Shown here: in pieces, positions 11,025-33,984 of the stretch
Layout of the letters: every line of letters starts with the position of its first letter
How positions within the stretch are numbered: the stretch's first letter is position 1
DNA from: Alphaproteobacteria bacterium
Lineage (GTDB): Bacteria; Pseudomonadota; Alphaproteobacteria; GCA-2731375
DNA: 64,000 bases
Direction of reading: 5' to 3'
Assembly: GCA_965232515.1 (NCBI GenBank)
Contig: CBDDPY010000002.1
Span: 1,184,001 to 1,248,000, forward strand
Translations under genes and position numbers: made by a program
Notes under the pieces: model-generated
Database searches by the model: none
The model's input: the letters and a program-made list of their open reading frames with translations, nothing else
Told to the model about the DNA's origin: nothing

Positions 11025-11172
11025 GCCGCACTCGCTCCCATTTCTGCGTCGTTCGATTGCGCCGAATCGTCGCACAGGCGGCTTGAGCTTGGCCAGCGGC
11101 AAGCGGCTTTAACCGTTCGGCAAGGCCGGCGGCCCAGACTGGCGGGTCCGTTCAAGCACCGGGGGTCCCCGC

Positions 11173-12243
11173 ATGGGCCAGGCCGTCTATTCCGCCCTGA
11201 AGCCGTTCGCCTATCCCGACCGGTTGGCCGCGCTCAGCCGCGACGACGGCTGGGCCGCGCCGGTGCATGTGCGGATCAAGCCGACCAACGTCTGCAACCA
11301 TGCCTGCTGGTTCTGCGCCTACCGCAATGACGGCGTCAGCCTGGGCAGCGGCATGACCGTGCGCGACAAGCTGCCGCGCGAGAAGATGCTGGAGATCGCC
11401 GACGACCTGATCGCCATGGGCGTCGAGGCCGTGACTTTCTCTGGCGGCGGCGAGCCGCTGATCTACCCGCATCTGGTCGAGGCCATCGAGCGCCTGGCCG
11501 CCGGCGGCATCAAGATCGGCGCGCTCACCAACGGCGCGCGGCTCAAGGGCAAGGTCGCGGACGCGCTGGCCGCGCATGCGAGCTGGCTCCGGGTGTCGAT
11601 CGACGGCTGGGACGGCGCCAGCTACGCCCGCTATCGCGGCGTCAAGGAAGACGCGTTCGAGGAGGTGATGGCGAACCTGACGGGCTTCGCCGATCGCGGC
11701 AGTGCGTGCGTGCTCGGCGCCAGCATCATCGTCGACCGGGACAATGCGTCGCACATCCATGAGCTCGCCGCCCGGCTCAAGGCCTGCGGCGTCAGCCATG
11801 CCAAGATCTCGCCCTGCATAACGTCGGACGACGGCGCCGAGACCAATGCCTACCACGCCGATATCTGGGACACGGTCCGGGCCGAGATCGAGAGAGCGCG
11901 GGCGCTCGACGACGACGGTTTCCGGGTGGTCGACCACTATCACGAGGCCGCCGTCGAGACGGCAAAGCCCTATGACCGCTGTCCGTTCGCACGGCTGCTA
12001 ACGGTGATCGGCGCGGACGCAAAGGTCTACTTTTGCCAGGACAAGGCCTATACCGAGAGTGGCTGCCTCGGCAGCATCGCCGACCGCCGTTTCGCCGACT
12101 TCTGGGCCGCGCCCGAGACGCGGGCGCGCCTCAACGCCCTCGACCCGTCGGCGACCTGCCGGCACCACTGCGTTGCCGACGCCAAGAACCGGCTGCTGTT
12201 GGATTACCTCTCCCTCGACCGGGAGCACATGGCGTTCGTCTAG
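11173..12243 (+). CDS. Radical SAM protein with C-terminal SPASM/twitch-type Cys region
   Basis: CNHACWFC (CxxxCxxC), FSGGGEP, C-terminal CPF..IGADAKVYFC..CRHHC. Confidence 0.88.
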   Translation: MGQAVYSALKPFAYPDRLAALSRDDGWAAPVHVRIKPTNVCNHACWFCAYRNDGVSLGSGMTVRDKLPREKMLEIADDLIAMGVEAVTFSGGGEPLIYPHLVEAIERLAAGGIKIGALTNGARLKGKVADALAAHASWLRVSIDGWDGASYARYRGVKEDAFEEVMANLTGFADRGSACVLGASIIVDRDNASHIHELAARLKACGVSHAKISPCITSDDGAETNAYHADIWDTVRAEIERARALDDDGFRVVDHYHEAAVETAKPYDRCPFARLLTVIGADAKVYFCQDKAYTESGCLGSIADRRFADFWAAPETRARLNALDPSATCRHHCVADAKNRLLLDYLSLDREHMAFV

Positions 12244-15878: not shown

Positions 15879-16101
15879 GTTTTTCTCCGCGTTTCTTCGT
15901 TGTGAACCCCGCCTCACGGCGAAACGGCTCAACCGTTTTTGCGTCCGTTGTTAGCTTTCGATCTTAGCGTGTCGGATCGTTCACGGGAAATCTGCGGGAG
16001 CTGTTGTGGTTTCGTCTGGGGACGACAGACAACGATCTGGCCAATTCTCCGTGGGATGATTAGGCTCGGGCGCCCGGCAGGTAGCCCAGTTGACTGTGCG
16101 T

Positions 16102-17133
16102 ATGACGGATTCATCACAGAACCAGGACGAGCGTCCGATCCCGGTGACCCTGATCACGGGGTTTCTGGGCAGCGGCAAGACGACGTTGCTGTCGCATCTG
16201 CTGGCACAGACGGCGGCCGTGCCGACGGCGGTGCTGGTTAACGAGTTCGGCGAGATCGGGCTGGATCACGATCTGATCCGCCGGGGCGACGATCAGCTGA
16301 TCGAGTTGAGCAACGGCTGCATCTGCTGCGCCATGCAGGAGGACCTGGTGGCGACGCTGGGCGATCTGATGGCGCGGCGCGGGCAGGGCGACATCGCGGC
16401 GTTCCGGCGCGTGGCCATGGAAACCAGCGGGCTCGCCGACCCGGCGCCGATCGTGCAGACCCTGCTGACCTATCCGTATCTCGCCGAGACATTCCGTCTG
16501 GACGCGGTCATCACGACCGTCGATGCGGTGAATGGCGGCGCGACATTGGACAAGCATCCCGAGGCGGTCAAGCAGGCGGCGCTTGCCGACCGTCTGATCC
16601 TGACCAAGACCGACCTTGTCGACGACGATGCGGCCGACGCGCTGACGGCGCGCCTGCAGCGGCTCAACGCCGGCGCGCGTCGTCTGACCGTCGTCAATGG
16701 GACGGTCGCGCCCGAAGCGCTGTTCGACATCGGCGTGCACGATCCTGATGTGGCCGGCGCGCGGGTGCAGGACTGGCTCGGCGAGACCGGGCAGCATGCG
16801 CACGACCACAGTGTCGATATCGAAACCTTCTGCGTCGTGCGCGACCGGCCCGTGGCGCCTGCGGCTTTCGCTGACTTCCTGCGCCGGCTAAGCGTCGAGT
16901 GCGGCCCCGACCTGCTGCGGGTCAAGGGACTGGTCAACGTGGCCGGCTATCCCAACCGGCCGGCGGTGATCCATGGCGTGCAGCAGGCCTTCCACCCACC
17001 GGTCTGGCTGGATCGGTGGCCGAGCGCCGACCGGCGCACGCGGATCGTCGCCATCACGCGGGGCGCGGTAAAGGACTGGATCACCGACGCGCTGGAGGCT
17101 GTCGACGGTCCCGGCGCGCAGGCGGCCCAGTAG
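16102..17133 (+). CDS. CobW/COG0523 G3E GTPase (metallochaperone)
   Basis: GFLGSGKTT, VNEFGE, GCICC, METSGLADP, His patch, LLRVKG. Confidence 0.92.
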   Translation: MTDSSQNQDERPIPVTLITGFLGSGKTTLLSHLLAQTAAVPTAVLVNEFGEIGLDHDLIRRGDDQLIELSNGCICCAMQEDLVATLGDLMARRGQGDIAAFRRVAMETSGLADPAPIVQTLLTYPYLAETFRLDAVITTVDAVNGGATLDKHPEAVKQAALADRLILTKTDLVDDDAADALTARLQRLNAGARRLTVVNGTVAPEALFDIGVHDPDVAGARVQDWLGETGQHAHDHSVDIETFCVVRDRPVAPAAFADFLRRLSVECGPDLLRVKGLVNVAGYPNRPAVIHGVQQAFHPPVWLDRWPSADRRTRIVAITRGAVKDWITDALEAVDGPGAQAAQ

Positions 17134-17136
17134 GCG

Positions 17137-18585
17137 ATGCGCATCCAACTCGAGCAACAGAGCGCGATCGTCGACCTGGCCGGCGGCGCCGAAATGAGCG
17201 CCGTCGCGCTCGAGGCGGCGGTGGCCACGCGAACGGCGCTGTTGCGCGCGCGCGGGCTCGGCCGGGGCGGGTACGCGGTGATCGCCCATGGCGGCACGCC
17301 GGCGTTTTTCGCCGATCTGCTGGCGGTCTGGCGGACCGGCGCCTGCGCGGCCTGCGTCAATCCGGGCCTCGCAGATGCGGAGCTCGCCAATGTTGTGCAC
17401 TTCCTGAAGCCCGCCGTGCTGCTGGTCGACGAGGCGTTCGCCGGGGACGGGCTCGACCTGCCGGTTCTGCGGGTCGGCGAACTGGCAGGCGCGACACCCG
17501 ACGACGACGCGGCGGATACGGCGCTGGACGACCCGGCGCTGATCCTGTTCACCTCGGGCACGACGGGCGCGCCGAAGGGGGTGGTGCACAGCTTCCGCTC
17601 GCTGCTGGCGCGGGTGGCGTTGAACCGGACGCATATCGGCGACGCGACGCTGCGAACGGCGCTGTGCGTGTTGCCGACGCATTTCGGCCATGGCCTGATC
17701 GGCAACTGCCTGACGCCGCTCTTGGCCGGCGGGCGGCTGCTGCTGTTCCAGAACATGGGGCTGCGCGAGATGGCGGGCCTGGGCGGGCTGATCGACGACC
17801 GCGGCGTGACGTTCATGAGCTCGGTACCGGCGTTCTGGAAGCTCGCCAGCAAGGCGGGCCGGCCGCCAGCGACGCGTACGCTCCGGCAAGTCAATATCGG
17901 CTCGGCGCCGCTGTCGGCGGAACTCTGGCGCACGGTGATGGACTGGTGCGGCACCGACCACGTGGTCAACATGTACGGCATCACCGAGACGGCGAACTGG
18001 GCGGCCGGCGCATCGGCGCGCGACGCCGCGCCCGAAGACGGTCTGGTCGGGACGATGTGGGGCGGCCGGGCCGCCGTGCTGGCGGACGACGGCGCGGTCT
18101 CGGCGGCGGGCGAGGGGGAGATCCTGCTGCAGACGCCGTCGCTGATGACGGGCTATCACCAGCGCCCGGATTTGAGCGGCGAGGTGCTGCGGGCCGGCTG
18201 GTTCCACACCGGCGATATCGGCGCGATCGACGACGGCGGCGTCATCCGCCTGTCGGGCCGGGCCAAGAGCGAGATCAACCGTGCCGGCATCAAGGTGCAC
18301 CCCGAGGAGGTCGACCTGCTGCTGGAACGGCATCCTGATGTGGCCGAGGCCTGCACGTTTGGCGTGCCCGACGCGATCAGCGGCGAGATCGTCGGCGCCG
18401 CGGTTTGCTTGGCGGGCGATGCCGCCGTCACGCCGGCCGACCTGCGGGCCTGGTGCCTGGAGCGCATGCGGCGCGAAGGCGTGCCGGAAAAGTGGTATGT
18501 GGTGGACCGGATTCCGAAGACCGACCGCGGCAAGATCAACCGCGAGGCGGTCCGGGCTTACGCGGAAGGTTTGAGTAAGACGTGA
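17137..18585 (+). CDS. Adenylate-forming acyl-CoA/acyl-ACP ligase
   Basis: [30 protein letters not shown]. Confidence 0.88.
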   Translation: MRIQLEQQSAIVDLAGGAEMSAVALEAAVATRTALLRARGLGRGGYAVIAHGGTPAFFADLLAVWRTGACAACVNPGLADAELANVVHFLKPAVLLVDEAFAGDGLDLPVLRVGELAGATPDDDAADTALDDPALILFTSGTTGAPKGVVHSFRSLLARVALNRTHIGDATLRTALCVLPTHFGHGLIGNCLTPLLAGGRLLLFQNMGLREMAGLGGLIDDRGVTFMSSVPAFWKLASKAGRPPATRTLRQVNIGSAPLSAELWRTVMDWCGTDHVVNMYGITETANWAAGASARDAAPEDGLVGTMWGGRAAVLADDGAVSAAGEGEILLQTPSLMTGYHQRPDLSGEVLRAGWFHTGDIGAIDDGGVIRLSGRAKSEINRAGIKVHPEEVDLLLERHPDVAEACTFGVPDAISGEIVGAAVCLAGDAAVTPADLRAWCLERMRREGVPEKWYVVDRIPKTDRGKINREAVRAYAEGLSKT

Positions 18586-19160
18586 TGGACTGGCAGCCGG
18601 GCGAGCCGCTGACGCTTCCGACGCCGCGCTTCACCGTGCGGACGACGACGATCTACGACGTGACCGAGAGCATGGTCGCCTGGATGGCCGATCCCGAGGT
18701 GATGATCACGCTGAACTCGACCGGGCGCGAGATCACGCTTGCGCAGATGAAACGGCAGGTGAAGCAGTACGACAACCGGCGCAATTTTCATCTGAGCGTG
18801 TTCGACAAGCGCGACGACACCGCCATCGGCTTCTACACGGTGAACTGCAAGCCGTGGCACCGCACCGCCGAGACCGCGGTGGTGATCGGCAACCGCGATT
18901 ACTGGGGCCAGAACGTGGTCATCGAGACGCGGTCGGCGATCCTGGATTTCCTGTTCGACGTGATGGACCTGCACAAGGTGACCGGCCTGCCGTTCGCCCG
19001 CAACTTTCCGTCCGTCTTCAACTACAAGGCGCTCGGCTTCCGCTGCGAGGGCGTGTTCCGCGAGCATCTGCGCAGTGTCGAGGGCGGCCGGCTGGACCAG
19101 TGCCTGTTCGGTCTGCTGCGCGACGAGTGGCATGCGCACCGGGAGACCCTGCAGCGATGA
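18582..19160 (+). CDS. GNAT N-acyltransferase (RimJ/RimL-like)
   Basis: IGNRDYWGQ, NFPSVFNYKALGFRCEGVFREH; overlaps the ligase stop codon. Confidence 0.82.
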   Translation: MMDWQPGEPLTLPTPRFTVRTTTIYDVTESMVAWMADPEVMITLNSTGREITLAQMKRQVKQYDNRRNFHLSVFDKRDDTAIGFYTVNCKPWHRTAETAVVIGNRDYWGQNVVIETRSAILDFLFDVMDLHKVTGLPFARNFPSVFNYKALGFRCEGVFREHLRSVEGGRLDQCLFGLLRDEWHAHRETLQR

Positions 19161-19405
19161 CCGACCAGCACGCCGGCAACGGCTACGAGCGGGCCCGGAC
19201 GATCCTGGCCGAAGCGCTGAACCTGGAGACCGCGGCCATCGACGCCGAGGCCTCGATCATGACGCTCGAGGCCTGGGACAGCCTGGCGCATATGCGCCTG
19301 ATCGCCGCGGTCGAGGACGACCTGGCGGTGCAGCTGGAACCGGACGCCATCGTCTCGATCGCGAGCCTGGCCGACGTCGTCAAGATCATCGAGGATCACG
19401 GCTGA
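19157..19405 (+). CDS. Acyl carrier protein
   Basis: 82 aa acidic protein with WDSLAHMRLI phosphopantetheine Ser motif; ATGA overlap with the GNAT gene. Confidence 0.85.
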   Translation: MTDQHAGNGYERARTILAEALNLETAAIDAEASIMTLEAWDSLAHMRLIAAVEDDLAVQLEPDAIVSIASLADVVKIIEDHG

Positions 19406-19451
19406 CGGCGCGCGGCATGTCATTGCGGCCGTCCAATGCCTTGGCGGCGCC

Positions 19452-19727
19452 TGTCGGTGATCTTTACACTTCGCCCGCCGACGCCGTCCGCCAGACTAAT
19501 TTTGGCCGGCGGCGTTCCAGGCTTTTGAAAACAGTGGCTTATTAACGTTTGCTGTTGGTTTGCAGCAGGCGAGACGGCCACGAATTCGCTTCGTTTTGCG
19601 GTCGTTCGGCGTGGAATTCTGTCGGGATTTTTTACAAGGCGCCGAGCGACGTAAAGCGACGCCAACCGCACCTGCGCCGTAACCTGTTGATTTAATTGGC
19701 TAACATCAATCCGGTACAGTTCTTGCT
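19452..19727 (+). promoter_or_regulatory. Sigma54 promoter module copy 1: two TGT-N11-ACA enhancer-like boxes, IHF site, -24/-12
   Basis: TGTCGGTGATCTTTACA 19452-19468; TGTCGGGATTTTTTACA 19620-19636; TAACCTGTTGATT 19680-19692 (YAA-N4-TTGATW); GG 19713-14 N10 GC 19725-26. Confidence 0.8.
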
Positions 19728-19832
19728 GAATGGACGGCAGCTTGGTTAACGGCGTCCCGGCAGGGACGACATGGATTCGATTTGGCGTCGTGGGGAGTCG
19801 CGTTGCCAGGGGAATTGGGGAGTAGTTCGACC

Positions 19833-20540
19833 ATGCAAGACAGCACAGTTACGCCGGCATCCACGGCATCGACCCATGTTTATCGCGTCGGCACGGCGAG
19901 TGCGCTGGCGCTCGGCGCCGGGTTGGCGGGCCTGAGCGAAGCCCAGGCGACCGTCATCCTGACCGATGTCAATGCCGAGGTCTCGGACGACGTCCAGGAC
20001 TTTGACGTGAACGACGACGGCATTGACGAACTGACGATCCAAGACCTTGACGGCGAGTTTGCGAGCGCGGAAGGGGGGCCGTCGTTGAAGGTGGCGTTCA
20101 CCTTCCTCGACCCGGACAAGCCGTTTTTTCTGACTCGGTTCGATTACGGCGACACGATCGGGGCCGCGACCTTTGGCCCCTCGAAGAAGGAAGCCTTCTT
20201 TTATAAGAAGTCTTTCTTCGTCAAGGGCAAAGGCAAGATCGACACTCAGGGTTTAAGCCCCTGGGAAGATGGCGAACGCGGCTTTTTCGGAATCTTCATG
20301 CCCGAGGGCACGATCAAGAAAGGCGGCTATTTCGGCTATGTCGAGGCACAGTTCTCGCCCGGCAACACCGTGACGATCTTCCGGATCGGCTTCGAGGACG
20401 AACTCAATACGCCGATCACCATCCGGAACGCCACGCAGGTGCCGGCGCCGGGCGGCATCGGCCTGCTGGCGCTGGGCGCGGCCGGCATCCTGGCCTACCG
20501 CCGGCGGCAGCGGAAGCAGGCGGTAACGGCCGCGGCTTGA
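19833..20540 (+). CDS. Secreted protein with PEP-CTERM-like (VPAPG) sorting tail, paralog 1
   Basis: Signal peptide ending AQA; C-terminus QVPAPGGIGLLALGAAGILAYRRRQRK. Confidence 0.85.
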   Translation: MQDSTVTPASTASTHVYRVGTASALALGAGLAGLSEAQATVILTDVNAEVSDDVQDFDVNDDGIDELTIQDLDGEFASAEGGPSLKVAFTFLDPDKPFFLTRFDYGDTIGAATFGPSKKEAFFYKKSFFVKGKGKIDTQGLSPWEDGERGFFGIFMPEGTIKKGGYFGYVEAQFSPGNTVTIFRIGFEDELNTPITIRNATQVPAPGGIGLLALGAAGILAYRRRQRKQAVTAAA

Positions 20541-20543
20541 GCC

Positions 20544-20809
20544 TGTCGGCAAGCTTTACAAACCACCCGACGACGACGTCCGCCGGCCAAACGTTGGCCG
20601 GCGGCAATCTAGGTCGTTGAAAACAAAGGCTTATTAACTTTTCCTGTTGGCCTGCAACAAGTAAGACGGCCGCGATTTCGAACGATTTTGCGGCCGTTCG
20701 GGATGGAACCGTGTCGGGATATTTTACACCGGGCCGAGAGACGCGAGCCATGCCCGCGTCGTAACCCATTGATTTAATTGAACTACGTCAAGCTGGTACG
20801 GATTTTGCG
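20544..20809 (+). promoter_or_regulatory. Sigma54 promoter module copy 2
   Basis: TGTCGGCAAGCTTTACA 20544-20560; TGTCGGGATATTTTACA 20712-20728; TAACCCATTGATT 20762-20774; CTGGTACGGATTTTGC with GG 20795-96 and GC 20807-08. Confidence 0.82.
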
Positions 20810-20914
20810 GAGAATTCGGCAGCTTGGTTAACGATGTCCGAGCCGGCATACATCGGATTCGAATTGGCGTCGCGTTCCGTCGCGTTGCCAGCGCAAGGGG
20901 GTAAACTTTCGACC

Positions 20915-21598
20915 ATGCAGGATAGCAACACCACGACGGCAGCCACGACATCGGCCAATCTCTACCGCGCAGGAACGGCGGGCGCGCTGGCAATCGGCGC
21001 CGGCCTGGTCGGATTGAGCGAGGCCCAGGCGGACGTCATTCTGACCGACTTCAATGTCACGATTACCGACGACTTCGAATTGTTCGACGTGAACGATGAC
21101 GGCGAGAACGAACTGGCCATCACAGACGAAACGGGCGTGTATTCCTCTGCGAAGGGATTTAGCGGAACGTTCTTTGCCGTCGATTCTTTCGGTGCACCCA
21201 AGGCGGTTTTTCTGACACGGTTCTATTACGGCGATACGATCGATAAGAGCAGCTTCTCCCCCGCCGGTAGAAGTGGCCTTTTCTATAGTTCGTTTCCGGA
21301 TTTTGCAGGTAAAAGCCCCTGGGAAGACGGCGAGCGCGGATTCTTCGGTTTTGCGGTTCCCTCGGACCTGGATCAAGAGGGCGTCTATTACGGTTATGTC
21401 GAGGCGCAGTTCTCGCCGGGCAACACGGTGACAATCTTCCGGATCGGTTTTGAGGACGAGCTCGGTACGCCGATCACCATCCGCGACCCCAACGCTGTGC
21501 CGGCGCCGGGCGGCATCGGCCTGCTGGCGCTGGGCGCGGCCGGCACGCTGGCCTACCGCCGGCGGCGGCGGAAGCAGGCCGCCGCGGCCACGGCCTGA
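20915..21598 (+). CDS. Secreted protein with PEP-CTERM-like sorting tail, paralog 2
   Basis: MQDSNTT..SEAQA signal; AVPAPGGIGLLALGAAGTLAYRRRRRK tail; homologous to its neighbours. Confidence 0.85.
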   Translation: MQDSNTTTAATTSANLYRAGTAGALAIGAGLVGLSEAQADVILTDFNVTITDDFELFDVNDDGENELAITDETGVYSSAKGFSGTFFAVDSFGAPKAVFLTRFYYGDTIDKSSFSPAGRSGLFYSSFPDFAGKSPWEDGERGFFGFAVPSDLDQEGVYYGYVEAQFSPGNTVTIFRIGFEDELGTPITIRDPNAVPAPGGIGLLALGAAGTLAYRRRRRKQAAAATA

Positions 21599-21734
21599 GC
21601 CTGTCTGTTCGGCGCGGGCGCGTCTTGCCGAGCACAATCGTGCTTGGCCAACACGGTCCCAATCGGGACGAAGCGGGTTCGAATTGGCGTCGCGGCTGAC
21701 CGCGTTGCCAGCGTAACAGGGGAAGCTTTCGACC

Positions 21735-22406
21735 ATGCAGGACAGCAAGACCACCACGACGGCCACGGCATCGGCCGATCTCTACCGCGCGGGCGCGGCG
21801 GGCGCGCTGGCGATCGGCGCCGGCCTGGCCGGATTGAGCGACGCCCAGGCGGCCGTCATCCTGACCGACGTCAACGCCACGATCACCGACGATTTCCAGA
21901 CGTTCGACGTAAACGATGACGAGGTGGACGAACTGGGCATCGGCGACAACACAGGCGCGTTTTCGTTTGCGAAGGGACTTGGCGGGACGTTCGTTGGCGT
22001 CGACTTTTTCGGTCTGCCGAAGCCGTTTTTCCTGACGCAATTCGATTACGGCGATACGGTCTCGAAGGAAACCCTTGTCGTCGGCACTATGAATGGCTTC
22101 TTCTACAAGTCGTCTAAGGCAGGCAAAAGCCCCTGGGAGGACGGCGAACGCGGCTTCTTCGGATTTGCGGTTCCGTCCGACATCGATGGACTAGGCGTCT
22201 ATTACGGTTATGTCGAGGCGCAGTTTTCGCCCGGCAATACGGTGAACATCTTCCGGATCGGCTTCGAGAACGAGATCAATACGCCGATCACCATCCGCGA
22301 CCCCAACGCGGTGCCGGCGCCGGGCGGCATCGGCCTGCTGGCGCTGGGCGCGGCCGGCACGTTGGCCTACCGCCGGCGGCAACGCAAGAAGGCGGCAGCG
22401 GCCTGA
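21735..22406 (+). CDS. Secreted protein with PEP-CTERM-like sorting tail, paralog 3
   Basis: MQDSKTT..SDAQA signal; AVPAPGGIGLLALGAAGTLAYRRRQRKK tail. Confidence 0.85.
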   Translation: MQDSKTTTTATASADLYRAGAAGALAIGAGLAGLSDAQAAVILTDVNATITDDFQTFDVNDDEVDELGIGDNTGAFSFAKGLGGTFVGVDFFGLPKPFFLTQFDYGDTVSKETLVVGTMNGFFYKSSKAGKSPWEDGERGFFGFAVPSDIDGLGVYYGYVEAQFSPGNTVNIFRIGFENEINTPITIRDPNAVPAPGGIGLLALGAAGTLAYRRRQRKKAAAA

Positions 22407-22502
22407 TTCCGTTCGGCGCACGCCACCCAAGACACAGATACGCCGTCGCCGCAAACCGCGGCGGCGGCTTGACGTAGTTCCGGACGCTTCCCTGCTGGCG
22501 GC

Positions 22503-25106
22503 ATGAGCGAACGACTGACCAAACGGGTATTGCTGCTCGGCTGGGACGGCGCGGACTGGAAGGTGATCCAGGCGCTGCTCGACGCCGGGCGGATGCCGAA
22601 CCTGGAGCGGCTGATCGACCGCGGCGTGATGGGCAACCTGGCGACGCTGCAGCCGATCCTGTCGCCGATGCTGTGGACCTCGATCGCCACCGGCAAGCAT
22701 GCCGACCAGCACGGCATCCACGGCTTCATCGAGCCGCGGCCCGACGGCGCCGGCGTGCGGCCGGTGACCAGCACCTCGGTCCAGGCCGAGCCGCTGTGGA
22801 GCATTCTCGAAAGCCAGGGCCTGAAGAGCGCCGTTGTCGGCTGGTTCGCGACTTATCCGGCCGACCGGGTCGCCGGCATCGCGGTCAGCGACCTCTACTG
22901 CAACGCCCGCGGCGCCAGCTTCGACGACTGGCCGCTGCCCGACCGCATGGTCAAGCCGGCGCGCCTGACGGACGTGATGGCCGACCTGCGGGTGCATCCG
23001 AGCGAAATCGAGGCCGGGCAGGTGCTGCCGTTCATTCCGCGGGCGCCGGAGATCGACCAGGAGGCGGACGAGCGGCTGGCCGCCTTCGCCCGGTTCATGG
23101 CCCGCTGCGCCACCGTGCACGGCGCCGGCACCTATGTGGCCGAGCACGAGGACTGGGACCTGCTGGCGGTCTACTACGAAACCGTCGACCGGATGTCGCA
23201 CTGGTTCATGGAGTACCACCCGCCGAAGATGCGGCACGTTATCGAGCAGGATTTCGAGATCTATCGAGAGGTGATCGACGGCATCTACCAGTTCCACGAC
23301 CAGACGCTGGGCCGCTACATGGAGCTGGTCGGGCCGGAGACGACGATCGTGATTTGCTCCGACCACGGCTTCTACAGCGACCATCTGCGCCCGCCGGTCT
23401 CGGCCAACATGCAGACCGGCAATCCGGTGCTGTGGCACCGCGACCTCGGCGTGTTCGTCGCCAGCGGTCCGGGCGTCAAGCGGGACGAGCTGGTGTTCGG
23501 CGCCTCGATCCTGGACATCGCGCCGACCGTCTTGACCCTGCTCGGTCTGCCGGTCGCGCGGGACATGGAGGGCCGGGCGCTGACCCAGATCCTGGCCAAC
23601 GATGTCCAGCCGGAACGGATCGGCAGCTATGGCGCGCCCGACGCGGCACCGGCGACCTACGAGGACCCGGGCGAGGCGCAGGCGGCGCTGACGCAGCTCG
23701 CCGAGCTCGGCTATATCGAGACGGTCTCGGACGACGCCGAGCTGGCGGTCGAGCGGGCGCTGATCCAGCAGCATCTCAATCTCGCCGACGTGCACCTGAA
23801 CAAGCGCCAGTTCAAACGGGCGATCGAGCACCTGGAGGCGTGGCGCAAGCTGGCGCCGGAAAACCGGCGCGCGCTTCTGAAGCTGGCGCAGTGTTATCTC
23901 GGGCTCGGCGAATTGGACGAGGCCCGCGCGATCCTCGACAAGCTCTTGGGCCGGGACCGCGACGGGCCGACCGCCAACCTGCTTTACGGCCAGCTGCTGT
24001 TTCGCGAGGGCAAGGACGACGACGCGCTGGCGCATTTCGAGCGCGCGGCCACGTCCGGCGCCAACAACCGCAACCTGCAGGCCCAGATCGGCCAGGTGCA
24101 CTTACGCGGGCAGCGCTGGCCGGAGGCGGACGCGGCGTTTCGCCGGGCGCTCGAGATCGACGCCGATTTCGCCCGCGCGCATCATGGGCTCGGCGTCGCG
24201 CTCTATGGCCAGGGCCACTACGAGGACGCGGTGAACACGCTGCTGCGGTCGATCGGCCTGCTTTATCACCAGCCGCTGGCGCATTACCACCTCGGCATCG
24301 CGCTGGCCGCGAGCGGCCGGGTCGGCAACGCGGTCGAGGCGCTGAACAACGCGCTGAAGCTGGCGCCGAACCTGGCCGTGGCCCAGAAGGCGCTGGCGCA
24401 GCTCGACCGCGACACGCGCAAGGCGGTGAAGGCCGAGATCCTGCGCGTGCAGACCATGCTCGACGAACGCGACGCCGAGGCCGCCGATGCGCCGGCGGCA
24501 GCCGAGAAGGCCGCGGTTTCGGACGAGGCGGCGATCACCGTGGTCTCAGGCCTGCCGCGTTCCGGGACCTCGATGATGATGCAGATGCTGGCCGCCGGCG
24601 GCATGCCGGTGCTGACCGACGATCAGCGCGCCGCCGACGCCGACAATCCCAAGGGCTATTTCGAGCTGGAGGCGGTGAAGCGGCTCGAGACCGAGACGAC
24701 CTGGCTGGCGGACGGCGTCGGCAAGGCCGTCAAGATCATCTATTCGCTGCTCTACCACCTGCCGGCGGACCGCGCCTACAAGGTGCTGTTCATGCGCCGC
24801 GACATCGACGAGGTGCTGGCCTCGCAGGCCGACATGCTGGCGCGCGCCGACAAGGCGGGCGCGGCCGAGCCGGCGAAGCTCGCCGACGCCTTCCGCCAGC
24901 AACTGGCGCGCATCGAGGCCTGGCTCGCCGGGCAGCCGAACATCGACGTGCTTTATGTCGATCACCGCGACGCGGTCGACGACCCGGCCGCAACGGCAGC
25001 GCGGGTAGCTGCGTTTCTCGACGCCGGTGTGGACGCGGCCGCCATGGCCGCCGCGGTGGACGGCACGCTCTATCGCCACCGCGGAGATGCGTCGTCGGCC
25101 CCTTAA
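22503..25106 (+). CDS. Fusion: alkaline phosphatase superfamily (phosphodiesterase/NPP-like) + TPR repeats + sulfotransferase
   Basis: LLGWDGADW, LSPMLWTSIATG, CSDHGF, SILDIAPTVL; multiple TPRs; VVSGLPRSGTSMMM (PAPS 5'-PSB) and FMRRDIDEVLASQ (3'-PB). Confidence 0.85.
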   Translation: MSERLTKRVLLLGWDGADWKVIQALLDAGRMPNLERLIDRGVMGNLATLQPILSPMLWTSIATGKHADQHGIHGFIEPRPDGAGVRPVTSTSVQAEPLWSILESQGLKSAVVGWFATYPADRVAGIAVSDLYCNARGASFDDWPLPDRMVKPARLTDVMADLRVHPSEIEAGQVLPFIPRAPEIDQEADERLAAFARFMARCATVHGAGTYVAEHEDWDLLAVYYETVDRMSHWFMEYHPPKMRHVIEQDFEIYREVIDGIYQFHDQTLGRYMELVGPETTIVICSDHGFYSDHLRPPVSANMQTGNPVLWHRDLGVFVASGPGVKRDELVFGASILDIAPTVLTLLGLPVARDMEGRALTQILANDVQPERIGSYGAPDAAPATYEDPGEAQAALTQLAELGYIETVSDDAELAVERALIQQHLNLADVHLNKRQFKRAIEHLEAWRKLAPENRRALLKLAQCYLGLGELDEARAILDKLLGRDRDGPTANLLYGQLLFREGKDDDALAHFERAATSGANNRNLQAQIGQVHLRGQRWPEADAAFRRALEIDADFARAHHGLGVALYGQGHYEDAVNTLLRSIGLLYHQPLAHYHLGIALAASGRVGNAVEALNNALKLAPNLAVAQKALAQLDRDTRKAVKAEILRVQTMLDERDAEAADAPAAAEKAAVSDEAAITVVSGLPRSGTSMMMQMLAAGGMPVLTDDQRAADADNPKGYFELEAVKRLETETTWLADGVGKAVKIIYSLLYHLPADRAYKVLFMRRDIDEVLASQADMLARADKAGAAEPAKLADAFRQQLARIEAWLAGQPNIDVLYVDHRDAVDDPAATAARVAAFLDAGVDAAAMAAAVDGTLYRHRGDASSAP

Positions 25107-25177
25107 ATTTCGGTGTCGACATCGGCAACCGATGGCCGATCCTTCGAGACGCGCCCGATCGGGCGCTCCTCAGGATG

Positions 25178-26352
25178 GAGACCTTTGCACGGTTTTGGGA
25201 AGCGTGATTCACTGACGGTATAGGGGCTGTCGGTGAGGGTTTGAGATGTCTCGCAAGCGTGTTGGTCAGCTGGGGTTTGAGGACGCGGTTGTCGAGGCGC
25301 GGCTTGGCGCTCGGTTCGATCGGCTGTCGAAGATCAATGATCTTGTGGACTGGCGGCCGTTTGAGGCGCTGCTGGAGGGGCTTTATCCGTCGCGTCGGGG
25401 CGAGCCGTCTTATCCGGCGCTGATCATGTTCAAGGTGCTGCTGTTGCAGCGCTGGTACAATCTGTCGGATCCGATGATGGAGGAGGCGTTGGCGGACCGG
25501 ATCTCGTTCCGTCGGTTTGTCGGTCTGAGCCTGAGCGATCCGGTTCCCGATCACTCGACGATCCACCGTTTCCGGGACCGTCTACGCGGGGCGGCGCGTC
25601 TTGAGGCGCTGATGGGGGAGTTGTCGCGTCAGCTCGAAGCGCACCAGGTCGTGCTCAAACAAGGCACGTTGATTGATGCCAGCCTGGTGAGCAGCGCGGC
25701 GCGGCGGCCTCGGATCAAGGAAGGCCGGACCAGCCGGACCGATCCGGATGCGCGCTTTGGCACCAACAACGAGCGCCGGCGCTATAGCTTTGGCTACAAG
25801 CTGCATGTGGCCGTGGATCAGGGCTCGGCGCTGATCCGCGGCCTGTTTCTGACGCCGGCCAATCGCCAGGAGATCGACTTTGCCGCCGATTTGGTTCAGG
25901 GCGACGAGCAGGCCGTCTATGCCGACCGTGGTTATGACGCCCGGCGCCTGCGCGATCATCTGGCGGCGCTCGGCATCGCCGACGGGGTCATGCGCCATGC
26001 CCGTAAAGGCAGGCCGCTCAACGCCGAAGAGACCGCCCGGAACCACCGGCTGGTGGCCCGGCGCCGACCGGTCGAGAAGATCTTCGGCACCCTCAAACGA
26101 AGCTACCGCCTCAGCCGCCTGCCGCATTTCAGCCAAGCACGCAACGAAGTCACCGTCACGCTCGCCTGTTTCGCCTACAACCTGCGACGCCTCGCCGTCC
26201 TCTGCGCAACTTGAGGCCGCTCGATATCGACCTCATCGACAGCAAACAGGCCTCAAGCCGGTCAGCGGCTCGAAAACAGGCGCGATCGCCGCTAACAACC
26301 CAGCGCCAAGCTCGAACATAGCGACAAACAACACCTACCGTGCAAAGGTCTC
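25178..26352 (+). mobile_element. IS5-family insertion sequence (ends resemble IS1106), about 1175 bp
   Basis: Perfect terminal IRs GAGACCTTTGCACGGT / ACCGTGCAAAGGTCTC; flanking direct repeat CAGGATG (25171-77 and 26353-59). Confidence 0.93.
25246..26214 (+). CDS. IS5 family DDE transposase
   Basis: LLLQRWYNLSD, VPDHSTI, IDASLV, GYKLHVAVD, YADRGYD, RRPVEKIFGTLKR. Confidence 0.95.
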   Translation: MSRKRVGQLGFEDAVVEARLGARFDRLSKINDLVDWRPFEALLEGLYPSRRGEPSYPALIMFKVLLLQRWYNLSDPMMEEALADRISFRRFVGLSLSDPVPDHSTIHRFRDRLRGAARLEALMGELSRQLEAHQVVLKQGTLIDASLVSSAARRPRIKEGRTSRTDPDARFGTNNERRRYSFGYKLHVAVDQGSALIRGLFLTPANRQEIDFAADLVQGDEQAVYADRGYDARRLRDHLAALGIADGVMRHARKGRPLNAEETARNHRLVARRRPVEKIFGTLKRSYRLSRLPHFSQARNEVTVTLACFAYNLRRLAVLCAT

Positions 26353-28177: not shown

Positions 28178-29773
28178 ATGAGAGGCAAACACCGTCTGTT
28201 CGCCGTTGTAACGACGCTTACCGTCTTATCGCTTACCAGTAGCGCGGTGCTCGCTCAAAAGCAGGGCGGCATTCTCAAGGCCTATCACCGCGGCACGCCG
28301 CCAAGCGGCTCGATCCACGAGGAAGCGACCAACTCCACGGTCTCGCCCTATATGGGCGTCTTCAACAACCTTGTGATGTATGACCAGCACGTTGCGAAAA
28401 ACAGCCTGGAGACGATCGTTCCCGATCTCGCCACCGAGTGGACGTGGTCGGACGACTTCACCCGGCTGACCTTCAAGCTGCGCGAGGGCGTGAGCTGGCA
28501 CGACGGCAAGCCGATGACCTCGGCGGACGTCGCCTGCACCTGGAACCTGGTGCTGGGCACGAGCCGGCAGAAGCTGCGCAAGAACCCGCGCAAGTCCTGG
28601 TACACCAACCTCGACGAGGTCACCACCAACGGCGACCATGAGGTCACGTTCCACCTGAAACGCCCGCAGCCGGCCTTCATCGCGCTGTTGGCCTCGGGCT
28701 ACAGCCCGGTATATCCGTGCCATGTCTCGCCGAAACAGATGCGCACCAACCCGATCGGCACCGGCCCGTTCAAGTTCGTCGAGCTGAAGCAGAACGAGCG
28801 CGTCGTGTTCACGCGGAACGAGAATTACTGGAAGCCGGACCGGCCCTATCTCGACGGCGTCGAGTGGACGATCATCAAGAACCGCTCGACCCGTGTGCTG
28901 GCCTTCATCGCCGGCCGTTTCGACCTGACCTTCAACCAGGACATCACCGTGCCGCTGTTGAAGGACGTCAAGGAACAGGCGCCGGACGCGGTCTGCAAGC
29001 TCAGGACGAGCAATGTCAGCACCAACCTGATCGTCAATCGCGACGCGCCGCCCTTCGATAACGAGAAGATCCGCACCGCGATGGCGCTGACCGTCGACCG
29101 TCAGGCCTTCGTCGACATCCTGAGCGAAGGGCAGAACGTCATGGGCGGCGCGATGATGCCGCCACCGGAAGGCGTCTGGGGCATTCCGAAGGACAAACTG
29201 TCGGACGTGCCGGGCTATGGCGATGTCGCCAAGAACCGCGCCGAGGCGCGGGCGATCATGGAGGGCCTCGGCTATGGCGCCGACAACCCGCTGAAGGTGA
29301 AGGTCTCGACGCGCAACATCGCGATCTACCGCGATCCCGCCGTGATCCTGATCGACCACCTGAAGGAGATCCATATCGCGGCCGAACTGGAGACGGTGGA
29401 GACCAGCAACTGGCACGCCAAGGTGGCGCGCAAGGACTACATGATCGGCCTCAACCTGACCGGCCTCGGCGTCGACGACCCGGACGCGAACTTCTACGAG
29501 AACTATGCCTGCGGGTCGCAGCGCAACTATACCGGCTACTGCAACAAGGACCTGATGGCCCTGTTCGAGAAGCAGTCGATGATGAGCGATCAGGAGGAGC
29601 GCAAGAAGCTGGTGTGGGAGATCGACAAGAAGCTGCAGGCGGACGTGGCCCGGCCGATTATCTTCCACGACAAGTCCGCGACCTGCTGGCAGGCGCACGT
29701 CAAGGGCTTCGATACCATGACGAACAGCGTCTACAACGGCTGGCGCATGGAGGACGTCTGGCTCGACAAATAG
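28178..29773 (+). CDS. ABC transporter substrate-binding protein, family 5 (Dpp/Opp/Nik)
   Basis: Signal peptide, PDLATEW, FKLREGVSWHDG, PIGTGPFK. Confidence 0.92.
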   Translation: MRGKHRLFAVVTTLTVLSLTSSAVLAQKQGGILKAYHRGTPPSGSIHEEATNSTVSPYMGVFNNLVMYDQHVAKNSLETIVPDLATEWTWSDDFTRLTFKLREGVSWHDGKPMTSADVACTWNLVLGTSRQKLRKNPRKSWYTNLDEVTTNGDHEVTFHLKRPQPAFIALLASGYSPVYPCHVSPKQMRTNPIGTGPFKFVELKQNERVVFTRNENYWKPDRPYLDGVEWTIIKNRSTRVLAFIAGRFDLTFNQDITVPLLKDVKEQAPDAVCKLRTSNVSTNLIVNRDAPPFDNEKIRTAMALTVDRQAFVDILSEGQNVMGGAMMPPPEGVWGIPKDKLSDVPGYGDVAKNRAEARAIMEGLGYGADNPLKVKVSTRNIAIYRDPAVILIDHLKEIHIAAELETVETSNWHAKVARKDYMIGLNLTGLGVDDPDANFYENYACGSQRNYTGYCNKDLMALFEKQSMMSDQEERKKLVWEIDKKLQADVARPIIFHDKSATCWQAHVKGFDTMTNSVYNGWRMEDVWLDK

Positions 29774-29878
29774 GGATGGACGTAGCGGCGCGGGCCGGGC
29801 AGGGGCCTCGGCCCGCCCGTCCCGGCCGCGCGATCGAGTCCCGTCCCACTCGCCACACCGCGTGAAGGAGATGAGCCC

Positions 29879-30826
29879 GTGGGCACCTATATGGTGAAGC
29901 GTTTCCTGTTGATGCTGCTGACGCTGTTCGGCATCTCGGTGATCATTTTCTGCCTGCTGCGTCTGGTGCCGGGCAGCATCGTCGACATCCTGTTCGATTC
30001 CGCCGGCTTCATCGATCCGGCCGAGAAAGCTCAGATCGAGGCGGAACTCGGCCTCGACCAGCCGATCATCGTGCAGTACGCCGCCTGGATCGGCGGTCTG
30101 CTGCAGGGCGACCTCGGCTATTCCTATGTGTCCGAGCTGCCGACCATCGACGAGCTGGCGCCGCGCATTCCGATCACCGCCAAGCTCGCCCTGCTGGCGC
30201 TGATCTTCTCGGTGCTGTTCGGCCTGCCGCTCGGCGTGATCAGCGCGGTGAAGCAGGACACCAGCCTCGACTACTGCCTGCGGGTGATTAGCCTGAGCGG
30301 CCTATCGCTGCCGTCATTCTGGCTCGGCCTGCTGATCCTGATGGCCTTCGTCAGCTATTTCGACGCCATCCCGATCTACACCAATCCGCCGGACAGTCTG
30401 CTCGACGAGCTCTTGCTTTACAGCGTGCCGGCGGCCGCCGTCGGCTTTCGAAGTTCGGCATTGATCATGCGCCTGACGCGATCATCGATGCTGGAGGTTT
30501 TGCGTCAGGACTATATCCGCACGGCCAAGGCAAAGGGCGCCTCGGAGAACGCGATCAACTACCGCCACGCGCTGAAGAACGCCGTGCTGCCGGTGACCAC
30601 GATCATCGGCATCGAGGCGGGGTTTCTGATCGGCGGCCTGATCGTCACCGAGACCGTGTTCAACATCCCGGGCGTCGCCCGCTTCCTGGTCGAGGCGATC
30701 CAGTGGCGCGACTACCCGATCGTGCAGAACCTGGTGATGTTCATCGCCGTCGTCGTCGTGCTGGTGAACTTCATCGTCGACCTGACCTACGCCGCGCTCG
30801 ACCCGAGGATCAAGTATGCCGACTGA
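29879..30826 (+). CDS. ABC permease (DppB/OppB-like)
   Basis: GDLGYS, LRQDYIRTAKAKG EAA loop, DPRI end. Confidence 0.92.
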   Translation: MGTYMVKRFLLMLLTLFGISVIIFCLLRLVPGSIVDILFDSAGFIDPAEKAQIEAELGLDQPIIVQYAAWIGGLLQGDLGYSYVSELPTIDELAPRIPITAKLALLALIFSVLFGLPLGVISAVKQDTSLDYCLRVISLSGLSLPSFWLGLLILMAFVSYFDAIPIYTNPPDSLLDELLLYSVPAAAVGFRSSALIMRLTRSSMLEVLRQDYIRTAKAKGASENAINYRHALKNAVLPVTTIIGIEAGFLIGGLIVTETVFNIPGVARFLVEAIQWRDYPIVQNLVMFIAVVVVLVNFIVDLTYAALDPRIKYAD

Positions 30827-30857
30827 CGCGCAGCCCGCACCGGCCGGAGCCTAGTCC

Positions 30858-31751
30858 ATGGCCCAGATCGACCATCAGCTCGAACTCGCCCGCGCCGGCG
30901 CCCATGTCGAGAGTCGGCTGGGCGCGCTGCTGTTCTTCTGCCGCCGCTATCCGCTGGGCGCGATCGGCGGCGTCATCGTGCTGGTCTTCGTGCTGGCGGC
31001 GGTCTTCGCCGATGTCATCGCGCCGCACGACCCGCTGTCGACCGATCCATTGCTGTCGTTAAACCCGCCGACCACCGAGAACGTGCTCGGCAACGACATG
31101 ATGGGCCGCGACATGTACAGCCGGATCGTCCACGGCGCCCGTATCTCGCTTGCCGTCGGCATCGGCTCGACGCTGCTGGGCGGCATCATCGGCGTCATCG
31201 TCGGCCTGCTGTCCGGCTACCTGATGGGCTGGGTCGACTTGGTGACGCAGCGCATCATCGACACCATGCAGGCGCTCCCGTTATTGGTGATGGCACTGGT
31301 GATGGCGGCCGCGCTGGGCCCGTCGCTGGAAAACACCATCATCGCCATCTCCATACCCCTTGTGCCGCAGGTGGCTCGCGTGATCCGCGCCAACACGCTT
31401 TCGCTGCGCGAGATGCCGTTCGTCGAGGCGGCGCGGGCAGGCGGCATCAGCGAGATCTGGATCGCCATCCGCCATGTCCTGCCGAACACGCTGGCGCCGC
31501 TCATCGTGCTCGGCACGGCGCAGCTCGGCTCGGCGATCCTGACCGAAGCCTCGCTCTCTTTTCTGGGTCTCGGCATTCCGGAGCCGTATCCCTCCTGGGG
31601 CCGTATGCTGTCGGAGTCGGCGGCCGAATACGTGCGTACGGCACCTTGGCTGGTGATTTTCCCGGGCATCGCCATCTCACTTGCCGTGTTCGGCACCAAT
31701 CTCCTGGGCGACGCCTTGCGCGACCTGCTCGACCCGCGGCAGCGCTCGTGA
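30858..31751 (+). CDS. ABC permease (DppC/OppC-like)
   Basis: [29 protein letters not shown]. Confidence 0.92.
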
Positions 31752-32811
31752 CCGCAGAGCCGACGTCGACCGTCACCGTCGCCCGGCCGGAGGCGCAACC
31801 GGACGCCGCGCCCGTGCTCGAGATCGAGGGGCTGCAGACCTACTTCTACACGCGCGAGGGTATCGTCAAGGCCGTCGACGATGTCTCGTTCTCGCTCGGT
31901 CGCGGCGAAACCTTGGGAGTCGTCGGCGAGTCCGGCTGCGGCAAGAGCATCACCGCGCTCTCGGTCATGCGGCTGGTGCCCGATCCGCCGGGCAAGATCG
32001 TCGGCGGCCGGGTCCGTCTCGAGGGCCGCGATCTGATGGCGCTGGACGAGACCGAGATGCGCGACATCCGCGGCAACGAGATCTCGATGATCTTCCAGGA
32101 ACCGATGACCTCGCTCAATCCCGTCATCAGTATCGGCGAGCAGGTCTGCGAGGCTTTGCGCCTGCACCAGGACCTGTCCAAGGCCGACGCCATGGACAAG
32201 TCGGTGGAGATGCTGCGGCTGGTGAAAATCCCGGAGGCGGCGCAGCGGGTGAAGGAATACCCGCATCAGCTCTCGGGCGGCATGCGCCAGCGGGTGATGA
32301 TCGCCATGGCGCTGGCGTGCAATCCGAAGGTGCTGATCGCGGACGAGCCGACGACGGCCCTCGACGTTACGATCCAGGCGCAGATCCTGGACCTAATCGT
32401 CGACCTGCAGGAGCAGCTCGGCACGGCGGTGATCCTGATCACGCACGATCTCGGCGTCGTCGCCGAGACCACGCGGCGGGTCGTGGTCATGTATGCCGGC
32501 CGCAAGGTCGAGGAAGCGGACGTGCAGTCGCTGTTCGACACGCCGCTGCATCCCTACACCAGCGGCCTGCTGGCCTCGATCCCGCGGCTCGGCGTCATGA
32601 GCGGCGAGGCGGAAGAGGCGGCCGGCCGGCTGCTGGAGATCCCGGGCATCGTGCCGGCGCTGAACAATCTGCCGCCGGGCTGTACGTTCGCGCCGCGCTG
32701 TCCGTTCGCGGACGATCGCTGCCGGGCCGAATATCCGGCTTACGAGGAGAAGGCGCCGGGGCACTGGGCGGCCTGCTGGCGCAGCCACGAAATCGAGCTG
32801 GGGCCGGGCGC

Positions 32812-32815
<4 letters not shown>
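31748..32815 (+). CDS. ABC ATP-binding protein (DppD/OppD-like)
   Basis: [26 protein letters not shown]-terminal Cys-containing oligopeptide-transporter domain; GTG overlaps the upstream stop. Confidence 0.92.
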
Positions 32816-33918: not shown

Positions 33919-33984
33919 TGGAATCGACGAAGCCTCGGATCGACCTAGATGTAGGTGTCGGTGACGTTGCTTCCGAGGAAGTCG

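Follow-up and report, generated by a model that had tools for sequence, protein, structure and literature searches.

We analysed a window of 64,000 nucleotides (C2:1184001-1248000, the whole stretch of DNA considered here) from an alphaproteobacterial genome of 7.39 Mb in four contigs. Within it, three tandem genes for small secreted proteins are followed on the same strand by a gene for a large protein that joins an alkaline phosphatase (AlkP)-superfamily domain, an array of tetratricopeptide repeats (TPRs) and a sulfotransferase domain; we refer to the large protein as the fusion and to the small proteins and their relatives as its partners. The paralog open reading frames (ORFs) as called lie at 19782-20540, 20834-21598 and 21735-22406 on the + strand and share a common MQDS start at 19833, 20915 and 21735, giving proteins of 235 (19833-20540), 227 (20915-21598) and 223 amino acids (21735-22406). 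The fusion ORF (22503-25106, + strand, 867 amino acids) begins 96 nt beyond the third paralog. Residues 1-400 (22503-23702) form the AlkP-superfamily part, which is of the Phosphodiest/NPP-like kind, residues ~417-650 (23751-24452) the TPR array, matched by TPR_1, TPR_2, TPR_16 and related models, and residues 680-867 (24540-25106) a compact sulfotransferase domain of the type that uses 3'-phosphoadenosine 5'-phosphosulfate (PAPS). A preliminary description of this DNA had listed three secreted paralogs of these lengths with an AQA signal peptide and a VPAPGG-hydrophobic-arginine tail, an 867-residue protein within 100 bp on the same strand and the domain order AlkP-TPR-sulfotransferase; all of this is borne out by the ORFs and their spacing, by the tail model TIGR02595 and by PF01663, the TPR models and PF13469, each over its cut-off.

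The three paralogs are 64-75% identical pairwise, and each has a hydrophobic stretch at its N-terminus that closes with AQA, then a core of ~150 residues, then a tail of the form VPAPGG-GLLALGAAG-LAYRRR. On the PEP-CTERM model TIGR02595 the tails score 17.5, 19.1 and 18.5 bits, over the cut-off of 16, and on Pfam PF07589 they score 17.6-19.1 bits, below the cut-off of 20.7, with the motif VPAPGG instead of PEP. No named PEP-CTERM family (THxN NF038125, XDP1 NF041927, PepA NF033554 or NF038129) matches the paralogs over their full length, the best scores (20.8 against a cut-off of 85, and 19.4 against 125) coming from the tail only. TIGR02595 matches the genome at 49 places. The preliminary description found no exosortase, PrsK or PrsR gene in the window and advised looking for them in the rest of the genome. 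None lies within the 64-kb window, and the genome holds one PF09721 place, at C2:6573161, where XrtA (TIGR03109, 315 bits against 208) is fused with an EpsI domain; PrsK (700 bits against 300) and PrsR (685 against 503), each with a single match over its cut-off, are encoded 6-8 kb from XrtA. This region, C2:6.57-6.58 Mb, is ~5.4 Mb from the window.

AlphaFold2 modelled paralog 3 with a mean predicted local distance difference test score (pLDDT) of 77.4 and values >80 in the core. The model predicts an all-beta core at residues 40-182 followed by a C-terminal helix that would correspond to the PEP-CTERM membrane segment. A Foldseek search of the PDB with this model returned no match at E <= 0.001 (best E 0.13). 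With an aligner independent of Foldseek, six HmuY-like entries rank first at Z 6.2-7.0, which is within the tool's noise range, and the next entry follows at 4.9, while the ESM Atlas gave 'hypothetical protein' clusters only, at 0.85-0.88, below that tool's lead level of 0.9.

The fusion matches PF01663 (Phosphodiest) over residues 9-290 with 97.8 bits against a cut-off of 23, and PF13469 (Sulfotransfer_3) over residues 722-841 with 37 bits against 27. Its N-terminus is the first strand of the AlkP fold (MSERLTKRVLLLGWDGADW), a signal peptide is absent, and the enzyme is accordingly predicted from its sequence to be cytoplasmic. Within the AlkP part, all 17 aligned homologs share D15, S54, D229, H233, D287, H288 and H312. 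The pattern D...S-P...TG..HGI...D..H...DH...H fits what we take, by mapping from the NPP/PhnA literature, to be the two-metal site and nucleophile of the NPPs, and S54 presumably occupies the nucleophile position, judging by its likeness to the NPP motif T-F-P-N-H-Y-S-I-V-T-G...H-G-I. When compared with the PDB by sequence, the AlkP part gave marginal matches to phosphonoacetate hydrolase and iPGM (E 0.003-0.009), the whole fusion gave TPR matches only (consensus TPRs and the TPR region of OGT), and the sulfotransferase part gave no match. The fusion is not PrsT, the TPR protein of the XrtA system (TIGR02917), which it matches with 72 bits against a cut-off of 312 and in the TPR part only.

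In the sulfotransferase domain, all 66 aligned sequences share P-R-S-G-T-S, R112 and S120 (numbered as in alignment A6). Following the motif definitions, we take PRSGTS to be the loop that binds the 5'-phosphosulfate of PAPS and R112/S120 to be the Arg and Ser that bind its 3'-phosphate. The domain was modelled with a pLDDT of 88.3, and a Foldseek search of the PDB with this model returned 33 matches at E <= 0.001, the top 39 rows being sulfotransferases or retinol dehydratase. The closest solved folds are those of Teg12, Teg14 and StaL (best E 2.9e-5), enzymes acting on peptide-borne phenols, and the further neighbours include LGS1, CurM-ST, cytosolic SULTs, TPST2 and heparan sulfate enzymes, all with template modelling (TM) scores of ~0.5. 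TPST2 ranks 18, 22 and 24 (E 4-6e-4), behind Teg12, StaL, LGS1 and CurM. The class of acceptor is not readable from this predicted fold. The genome also encodes adenosine 5'-phosphosulfate (APS) kinase, so PAPS can be made. The enzyme looks active, with two apparently intact active sites, because the catalytic-type residues are invariant and the genome encodes an APS kinase for PAPS.

The fusion is single-copy in this genome, and proteins like it are common: a word-indexed protein search with the fusion gave at least 6113 proteins at E <= 1e-10 among 8000 candidates scored, most of them 840-1000 amino acids long and with the same three Pfam families. They carry source labels such as 'alkaline phosphatase family protein', 'tetratricopeptide repeat protein' and 'predicted AlkP superfamily phosphohydrolase/phosphomutase'. 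For analysis of gene neighbourhoods, we used the best 80 of 571 stretches confirmed by pattern scan as fusion-homolog loci, with one genome per species (L004-L083); they come from Planctomycetota, Verrucomicrobiota, Acidobacteriota, Bacteroidota, Nitrospirota, Methylococcaceae and others, at least six phyla in all.

The family to which the window paralogs belong is scarcely visible from the paralogs themselves. A single-sequence search with a window paralog gave six proteins, of which only four were foreign (62-82% identity), a profile of the three paralog cores searched against 1.84 billion representatives gave four proteins at E <= 0.001, two of them at E <= 1e-10, and phmmer with the paralog core against the fusion loci returned the window's own three only. 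The partner family emerged only upon iteration from another member, that of L078. Residues 41-181 of the L078 partner, without signal peptide or tail, served as seed for phmmer and then iterated hmmsearch against 2747 ORFs (>=100 amino acids) from the 80 loci and the window. The iteration converged (11, 40, 66, 74 and 74 ORFs), and nearly all members, which include T9SS (type IX secretion system)-tailed proteins and the three window paralogs (E 1.2e-16, 3e-19 and 1.2e-17, in gene order), cover the whole 137-position model. The window motif GFFGFAV...YYGYVEAQF...IFRIGFE marks the paralogs as a divergent branch of this family.

With this profile, one or more proteins with the partner core, a domain of ~135 residues, turn up at 47 of the 80 fusion loci, so that the co-location of fusion and small-protein family that the preliminary description proposed to look for is found in many phyla. 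Neither of the two genomic results that it had named as refuting its proposal, a genome without exosortase or a lack of conserved co-location, was obtained. The nearest partner is on the same strand and <=558 nt from the fusion match at 45 of the 47 loci, upstream at 31 and downstream at 14; at the other two it is on the opposite strand. Tandem arrays of 2-5 copies, as in the window, occur at 12 loci. Adjacency is kept even where partner identity across phyla is 15-25%. When all ORFs <=6 kb from the fusion were clustered by BLAST, no neighbour but the partner recurred: the three clusters that follow it consist of ORFs antisense to the fusion and of fusion pieces or second copies, and the first independent family reaches six loci. 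No transporter or glycosyltransferase travels with the pair in this clustering of the 80 loci, which favours a self-contained enzyme-substrate pair. We consider it very probable that the partner and enzyme genes constitute one functional module.

The sulfotransferase is the variable part of this module. It is absent from the whole locus at five loci with full flanks, which encode AlkP-TPR only; at four of these the profile still detects a partner, and at the fifth the neighbour is a PEP-CTERM protein. At two loci an ORF of its own, upstream of the AlkP-TPR gene, encodes the sulfotransferase. The partner is thus kept without the sulfotransferase, and the core of the module is therefore the partner and the AlkP-TPR protein, with the sulfotransferase usual but dispensable. 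Some loci carry additional genes of interest. A second fusion-like gene, again near further partner copies, is seen at L051, L069, L071 and L016, and at L069 two fusion genes are surrounded by five partner copies. After the fusion of the Methylococcaceae locus L007 lies a gene (10948-11889) with the domain of the formylglycine-generating (sulfatase-modifying) enzyme (PF03781, 177 bits), which is a second link to sulfur-ester chemistry and is found at this one locus only.

The anchor at the C-terminus of the partner changes from group to group. A regular expression for PEP-CTERM-like tails picks out ORFs of ~220-330 amino acids just upstream of the fusion and on the same strand at 31 loci, or 33 by a looser test; 23 of these 33 upstream proteins are over the TIGR02595 cut-off and none is over that of any named PEP-CTERM family. 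At Bacteroidota loci, the gene just downstream of the fusion encodes a protein of 277-435 amino acids with a T9SS sorting domain (PF18962 in 12 of 13 examined; TIGR04183 over its cut-off in 6 of 6 examined). An IPTL-CTERM tail is over cut-off at L050, IPTL or VPDSG tails are just under it at L060 and L053, and L072 has five partner copies of lipoprotein type. The same core with four kinds of anchor means that the pairing is not specific to exosortase, and since the anchor changes and the pairing stays, the enzyme would follow the core or the signal peptide rather than the sorting pathway. The idea of a surface-protein modification system, put forward in the preliminary description, thus gains from the conserved pairing but loses its tie to PEP-CTERM and exosortase as such; nor is the sulfotransferase the constant part, since the partner persists beside AlkP-TPR forms that lack it.

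In none of the members examined is the partner core covered by a Pfam or NCBIfam model, and relatives in a large protein collection have annotations of the tail only. The signal peptide of the partners commonly reads KKL..Y(S/A)A.AGA...A.A, with a Tyr opening the hydrophobic stretch in 51 of 72, and on this sequence evidence the region is unusually conserved. A looser expression, [KR]..Y[AST], flags none of 38 other PEP-CTERM ORFs of the genome and leaves the window paralogs unflagged too. The consensus continues with a mature N-terminus (I/V)(I/V)Y(T/S)D and a D.(D/N)GD..DF segment, and the core bears the motif GF.G.RF...(H)YGW.R...TI..YAYE, which has Y in 62, G in 71 and W in 64 of 72 members. 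In the genome of L010 (G061, Chitinophagales), which has 19 core matches, some of these are N-terminal in ORFs of 534-706 amino acids, and at L010:5031-6944 the core is joined to Calx-beta domains; in Bacteroidota the core is therefore also a module of larger T9SS cargo.

We also looked at whole genomes; related genomes are not independent, and the counts are given plainly, without a statistical test. A search of 60 relatives of this genome for the fusion gave no match in 59 and an AlkP-only match in one, and with the core profile (A5) nothing beyond the three window copies came up in 61 genomes of the lineage. In a Pirellulaceae genome the one core match adjoins the fusion, in a verrucomicrobial genome both matches are fusion neighbours, in a Methylococcaceae genome two of three are by the fusion, and a Bryobacterales genome has none. 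Where a genome has a single copy, the sole partner gene is within 1 kb of the fusion. Among 151 genomes of Planctomycetota, five have the core and four of these an AlkP-TPR(-sulfotransferase) gene, adjacent in three; two more have such a gene without a detected partner (G107, and G105, where it is at a contig end). Among 121 genomes of Verrucomicrobiota, five have the full fusion; four of the five have the partner, always adjacent, and in the fifth the one fusion copy is at a contig start. The enzyme is thus seldom found without the partner and the partner often without the enzyme, an asymmetry that is expected of an accessory modifier and its substrate family.

What we observe is an enzyme with these domains and motifs and without a signal peptide, partners that are homologous to one another, and genes that stay adjacent; from this we infer recognition, acceptor and chemistry. 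In the model that we propose, the locus would be one copy of a widespread two-part module, composed of one or more small secreted surface proteins and a cytoplasmic AlkP-TPR(-sulfotransferase) enzyme. The first part would consist of a conserved signal peptide, an all-beta core of ~135 residues with (H)YGW...AYE (in the window YGYVEAQF...IGFE) and an interchangeable anchor, here a PEP-CTERM tail that would be handled by the XrtA of the genome. TPRs are peptide-binding modules, as in OGT, and the TPR array may hold the unfolded preprotein in the cytoplasm, possibly via the conserved segment near the signal peptide. The sulfotransferase domain would then place the sulfate of PAPS on hydroxyl side chains, and the AlkP domain might perform a phospho-ester or hydrolytic step or remove the by-product 3'-phosphoadenosine 5'-phosphate (PAP). 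Sec would export the marked protein, and its tail would decide which sorting system anchors it. If the enzyme is cytoplasmic as predicted, its action on proteins must precede Sec export, and sulfation of surface glycans in place, one of the possibilities in the preliminary description, is unlikely. The addition or removal of sulfate or phosphate on the partner proteins is pure inference. That the cytoplasmic enzyme directly modifies the partner preprotein before export is, on the strength of these sequence features, a proposal that we doubt slightly more than we believe. In its favour, the nearest structural neighbours of the sulfotransferase domain include Teg12, Teg14 and StaL, with their peptide-borne acceptors, and TPST2. 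The wider form of the proposal appears rather doubtful, namely that a general, phylum-spanning machinery marks one surface-protein family in the cytoplasm by O-sulfation, with or without a phospho-ester step, whatever sorting pathway follows, and that the TPR array recognises a conserved motif near the signal peptide.

A number of observations weigh against direct modification of the partner. The pairing is incomplete, with 33 of the 80 loci lacking a profile-positive partner. Several of these 33 are contigs of 1.6-5 kb without flank, and at least six have other small sorted proteins by the fusion (PEP-CTERM at L004, L018, L047 and L081, VPDSG at L053, T9SS at L054). Four loci of Bryobacterales type or Solibacter (L008, L014, L044 and L059) carry a different conserved secreted protein of 366-381 amino acids upstream. 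This protein, which ends in ...FVFVIEKFV and has a TonB C-terminal match below threshold, may be a replacement partner. Conversely, 15 of the 19 core matches in one Chitinophagales genome are away from the fusion and four beside it, and 7 of 11 partner-positive Verrucomicrobiota are without the full fusion; the partner family so often occurs without the enzyme that modification is not essential to it. Loss of the sulfotransferase with retention of the partner implies in addition that sulfation is not the core chemistry. At the level of residues, the best-conserved Tyr of the signal region would be cut away by signal peptidase, and the Tyr of AYE in the core is Phe in all three window paralogs. 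The acceptor could also be something other than protein: small-molecule and carbohydrate enzymes score similarly to the rest among the fold neighbours of the sulfotransferase domain, and the closest folds to the partner model are those of ligand-binding HmuY-like proteins, within tool noise at Z 6.2-7.0.

The last two points lead to the alternative that the enzyme makes or trims a non-protein molecule, sulfated or phosphorylated (a lipid, a glycan precursor or a nucleotide-linked compound), which the partner binds or joins outside the cell, a reading close to the glycan version in the preliminary description. Besides the small-molecule and polysaccharide enzymes near the sulfotransferase fold and the six HmuY-like folds near that of the partner, it would account for an enzyme and a folded partner that are in different compartments, and exosortase and T9SS cargo are thought to be attached to surface polymers. 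We nevertheless regard it as unlikely: the conserved neighbourhood of the pair includes no glycosyltransferase, flippase or exporter, this reading leaves the TPR array without an obvious role, the pairing outlasts loss of the sulfotransferase, and the HmuY-like match does not rise out of the noise. Less probable still, and in our view quite unlikely, is that the TPR protein is mainly a cytoplasmic holding or targeting factor for preproteins, and that its catalytic domains act on nucleotides, by turnover of PAP and PAPS or on a signalling nucleotide. Cytoplasmic nucleotide hydrolases of the Phosphodiest family exist, AtaC for example, the signal-peptide region of the partners is conserved, and the TPRs give weak matches to type III secretion chaperone models, far below the cut-offs; against this, neither enzyme domain varies in its catalytic-type residues from one phylum to another, which points to a chemistry under selection as part of the module, and Sec substrates normally need no dedicated chaperone this large. 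That the genes have no functional link and owe their proximity to descent, or to a mobile island on which they hitch-hike, is very improbable, for although the paralog region is of lower G+C (0.61 at 20001-22000 against 0.66-0.69 on either side), an IS5 transposase abuts the fusion gene and both genes are absent from the 60 relatives, as expected of an acquired island, adjacency extends over at least six phyla with partners 15-25% identical, holds whichever gene comes first and whatever the anchor is, and places the sole partner of single-copy genomes <=1 kb from the fusion. The probability that is left over belongs to mechanisms beyond those listed. A prediction of the complex between the whole fusion and residues 1-60 of paralog 3 scored 0.01 against a mark of 0.32, without controls, and weighs neither way. 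We rejected a reading of the locus as a defence system, since the PADLOC anti-phage models, which include the AlkP-like PglZ, matched neither the fusion nor paralog 3 (0 families at E <= 0.01).

Within the locus, the unit of duplication is ~1.08 kb and takes in ~93-95 nt of 5' leader with each paralog. The leaders lie at 19738-19832, 20822-20914 and 21642-21734 on the + strand and were recognised as direct-repeat family D2, by alignment and by their consensus fold. All three contain a hairpin of 11 pairs (TTGGCGTCGYG...CGCGTTGCCAG) with invariant stems and a loop that varies by copy (GGGGA, TTCC and GCTGA); covariation is absent, with three copies only. No Rfam family scored above threshold in the leaders (19100-25400 scanned, one sub-threshold chance match), promoter and terminator scans of the locus were at shuffle level, and no conserved promoter of sigma-54 type was seen by eye in the three leaders. 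RNA-library contigs from relatives (three sets) cover parts of the locus, and two of them from one study, X6 and X9, join the end of a paralog to the start of the fusion (22323-22701) across a diverged 85-nt spacer. These contigs fit one transcript; DNA carry-over is possible, and co-transcription is therefore not proven. No read of a polyA RNA run with the same species label mapped here, a result that weighs neither for nor against transcription.

The G+C content at third codon positions is 0.80-0.82 in the paralogs against 0.92 in the fusion. The IS5-family transposase (25246-26214; NF033581, 251 bits) begins 140 nt past the fusion stop, and contigs of relatives aligned to the window lose similarity at ~25117-25177, which is probably the end of the IS5 element. 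These data suggest that the module was acquired horizontally, because relatives' contigs diverge near the IS5 element, the G+C of the paralogs is low and both genes are absent from relatives. Upstream of the module is a + strand operon (16090-19405), the stops and starts of which overlap or abut, with genes for a CobW/ZigA-like GTPase (16090-17133), an AMP-forming acyl-CoA ligase (17137-18585), a GNAT acetyltransferase (18582-19160) and an acyl carrier protein of 82 amino acids (19157-19405). It looks like a small acyl-transfer pathway and was rejected as part of the module, as its genes do not recur beside the fusion at the 80 loci. Downstream, a peptide ABC transporter (28178-32815) lies just before a gene for a 439-residue protein (33955-35274) with FG-GAP repeats and weak matches to astacin/matrixin metalloprotease zinc sites.

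A full-text literature search, the coverage of which stops short of subscription journals, returned nothing relevant on the enzyme, the partner core or their pairing in the portions of text available to it, and no characterised pathway with the organisation that the preliminary description had thought new was found there. As far as we found, there is no earlier description of the three-domain enzyme, of the partner core family or of their pairing; each component domain is from a known superfamily. Through the conserved pairing, two families that had been anonymous become a single system open to test, an orphan sulfotransferase and AlkP enzyme gains a defined candidate substrate, and the cargo family can be traced across the PEP-CTERM, IPTL-CTERM, T9SS and lipoprotein systems. 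If the enzyme does modify the partner, bacterial cell-surface proteins would carry a new post-translational modification, of relevance to biofilms and surface biology in Planctomycetota, Verrucomicrobiota, Acidobacteriota, Bacteroidota and Proteobacteria. If a general marking machinery exists, it would be the first widespread bacterial protein sulfation system beyond RaxST, thousands of proteins annotated as 'alkaline phosphatase family protein' would gain a function, and should the chemistry prove to be without precedent, the system may be categorically new.

Each part of the module has relatives among known systems. The AlkP part is over the PF01663 cut-off and so falls with the branch of NPPs, phosphonoacetate hydrolase and iPGM; unlike the NPPs, the fusion has Ser (S54) rather than Thr at the nucleophile position and lacks a signal peptide. 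The sulfotransferase domain resembles Teg12, Teg14 and StaL in fold (E 3e-5 to 2e-4, TM ~0.5) and in having the PAPS loop and the Arg/Ser of the 3'-phosphate site, but identity is 18-21%, and those are stand-alone enzymes of ~250-290 amino acids in antibiotic clusters. For the partner model, the top six folds are HmuY, PinO, Tfo, BfrB, BF2707 and a DUF4466 protein, all from Bacteroidota, with 107-126 residues aligned. These are likewise small, surface-exposed all-beta proteins, and some HmuY-like proteins are lipoproteins, as are the five copies of L072; identity is, however, 8-13%, and Z values of 6.2-7.0 are, according to the tool, typical of chance-level best matches. The window proteins resemble PEP-CTERM cargo in having tails over TIGR02595 in a genome with XrtA, PrsK and PrsR, but the locus is outside the XrtA exopolysaccharide cluster and the core belongs to no named PEP-CTERM family. 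NCBIfam uses the name 'choice-of-anchor' (D. Haft) for domain families seen with alternative anchors, and the partner core, which occurs with alternative anchors, is similar to these families.

The architecture and gene order of the module also have parallels. OGT and SPINDLY combine a TPR array with a transferase domain, and their TPRs grip unfolded substrate peptides. The TPR region of OGT is the best natural PDB match to the fusion TPRs, whereas the catalytic domains are unrelated, and the likeness is limited to the TPRs, which are generic. RaxST and RaxX of Xanthomonas oryzae are, according to two reports (PMC4892823, PMC4216712), a PAPS-dependent tyrosine sulfotransferase and its co-encoded secreted peptide substrate. 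As in that pair, a predicted cytoplasmic sulfotransferase of PAPS type is encoded here beside a gene for a secreted protein; in contrast to RaxST, the domain of ~190 amino acids is fused to TPRs and an AlkP-like domain, and in contrast to the short peptide RaxX, the partner is a folded domain of 135 amino acids with a Sec signal and a surface anchor. Tyrosine sulfation of the RaxST type would be an analogy only, with TPST2 no higher than rank 18 among the fold matches. RaxST acts in the cytoplasm before export, and RaxX is exported by a dedicated ABC system. In Aah-AIDA-I, TibC-TibA and HMW1C-HMW1A, a cytoplasmic glycosyltransferase is encoded beside its surface-protein substrate and acts on it before it crosses the inner membrane. 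There a sugar is transferred and here putatively a sulfo or phospho group, the enzyme folds are unrelated and the substrates differ, but the logic of a modifier gene beside the gene for a surface protein is the same.

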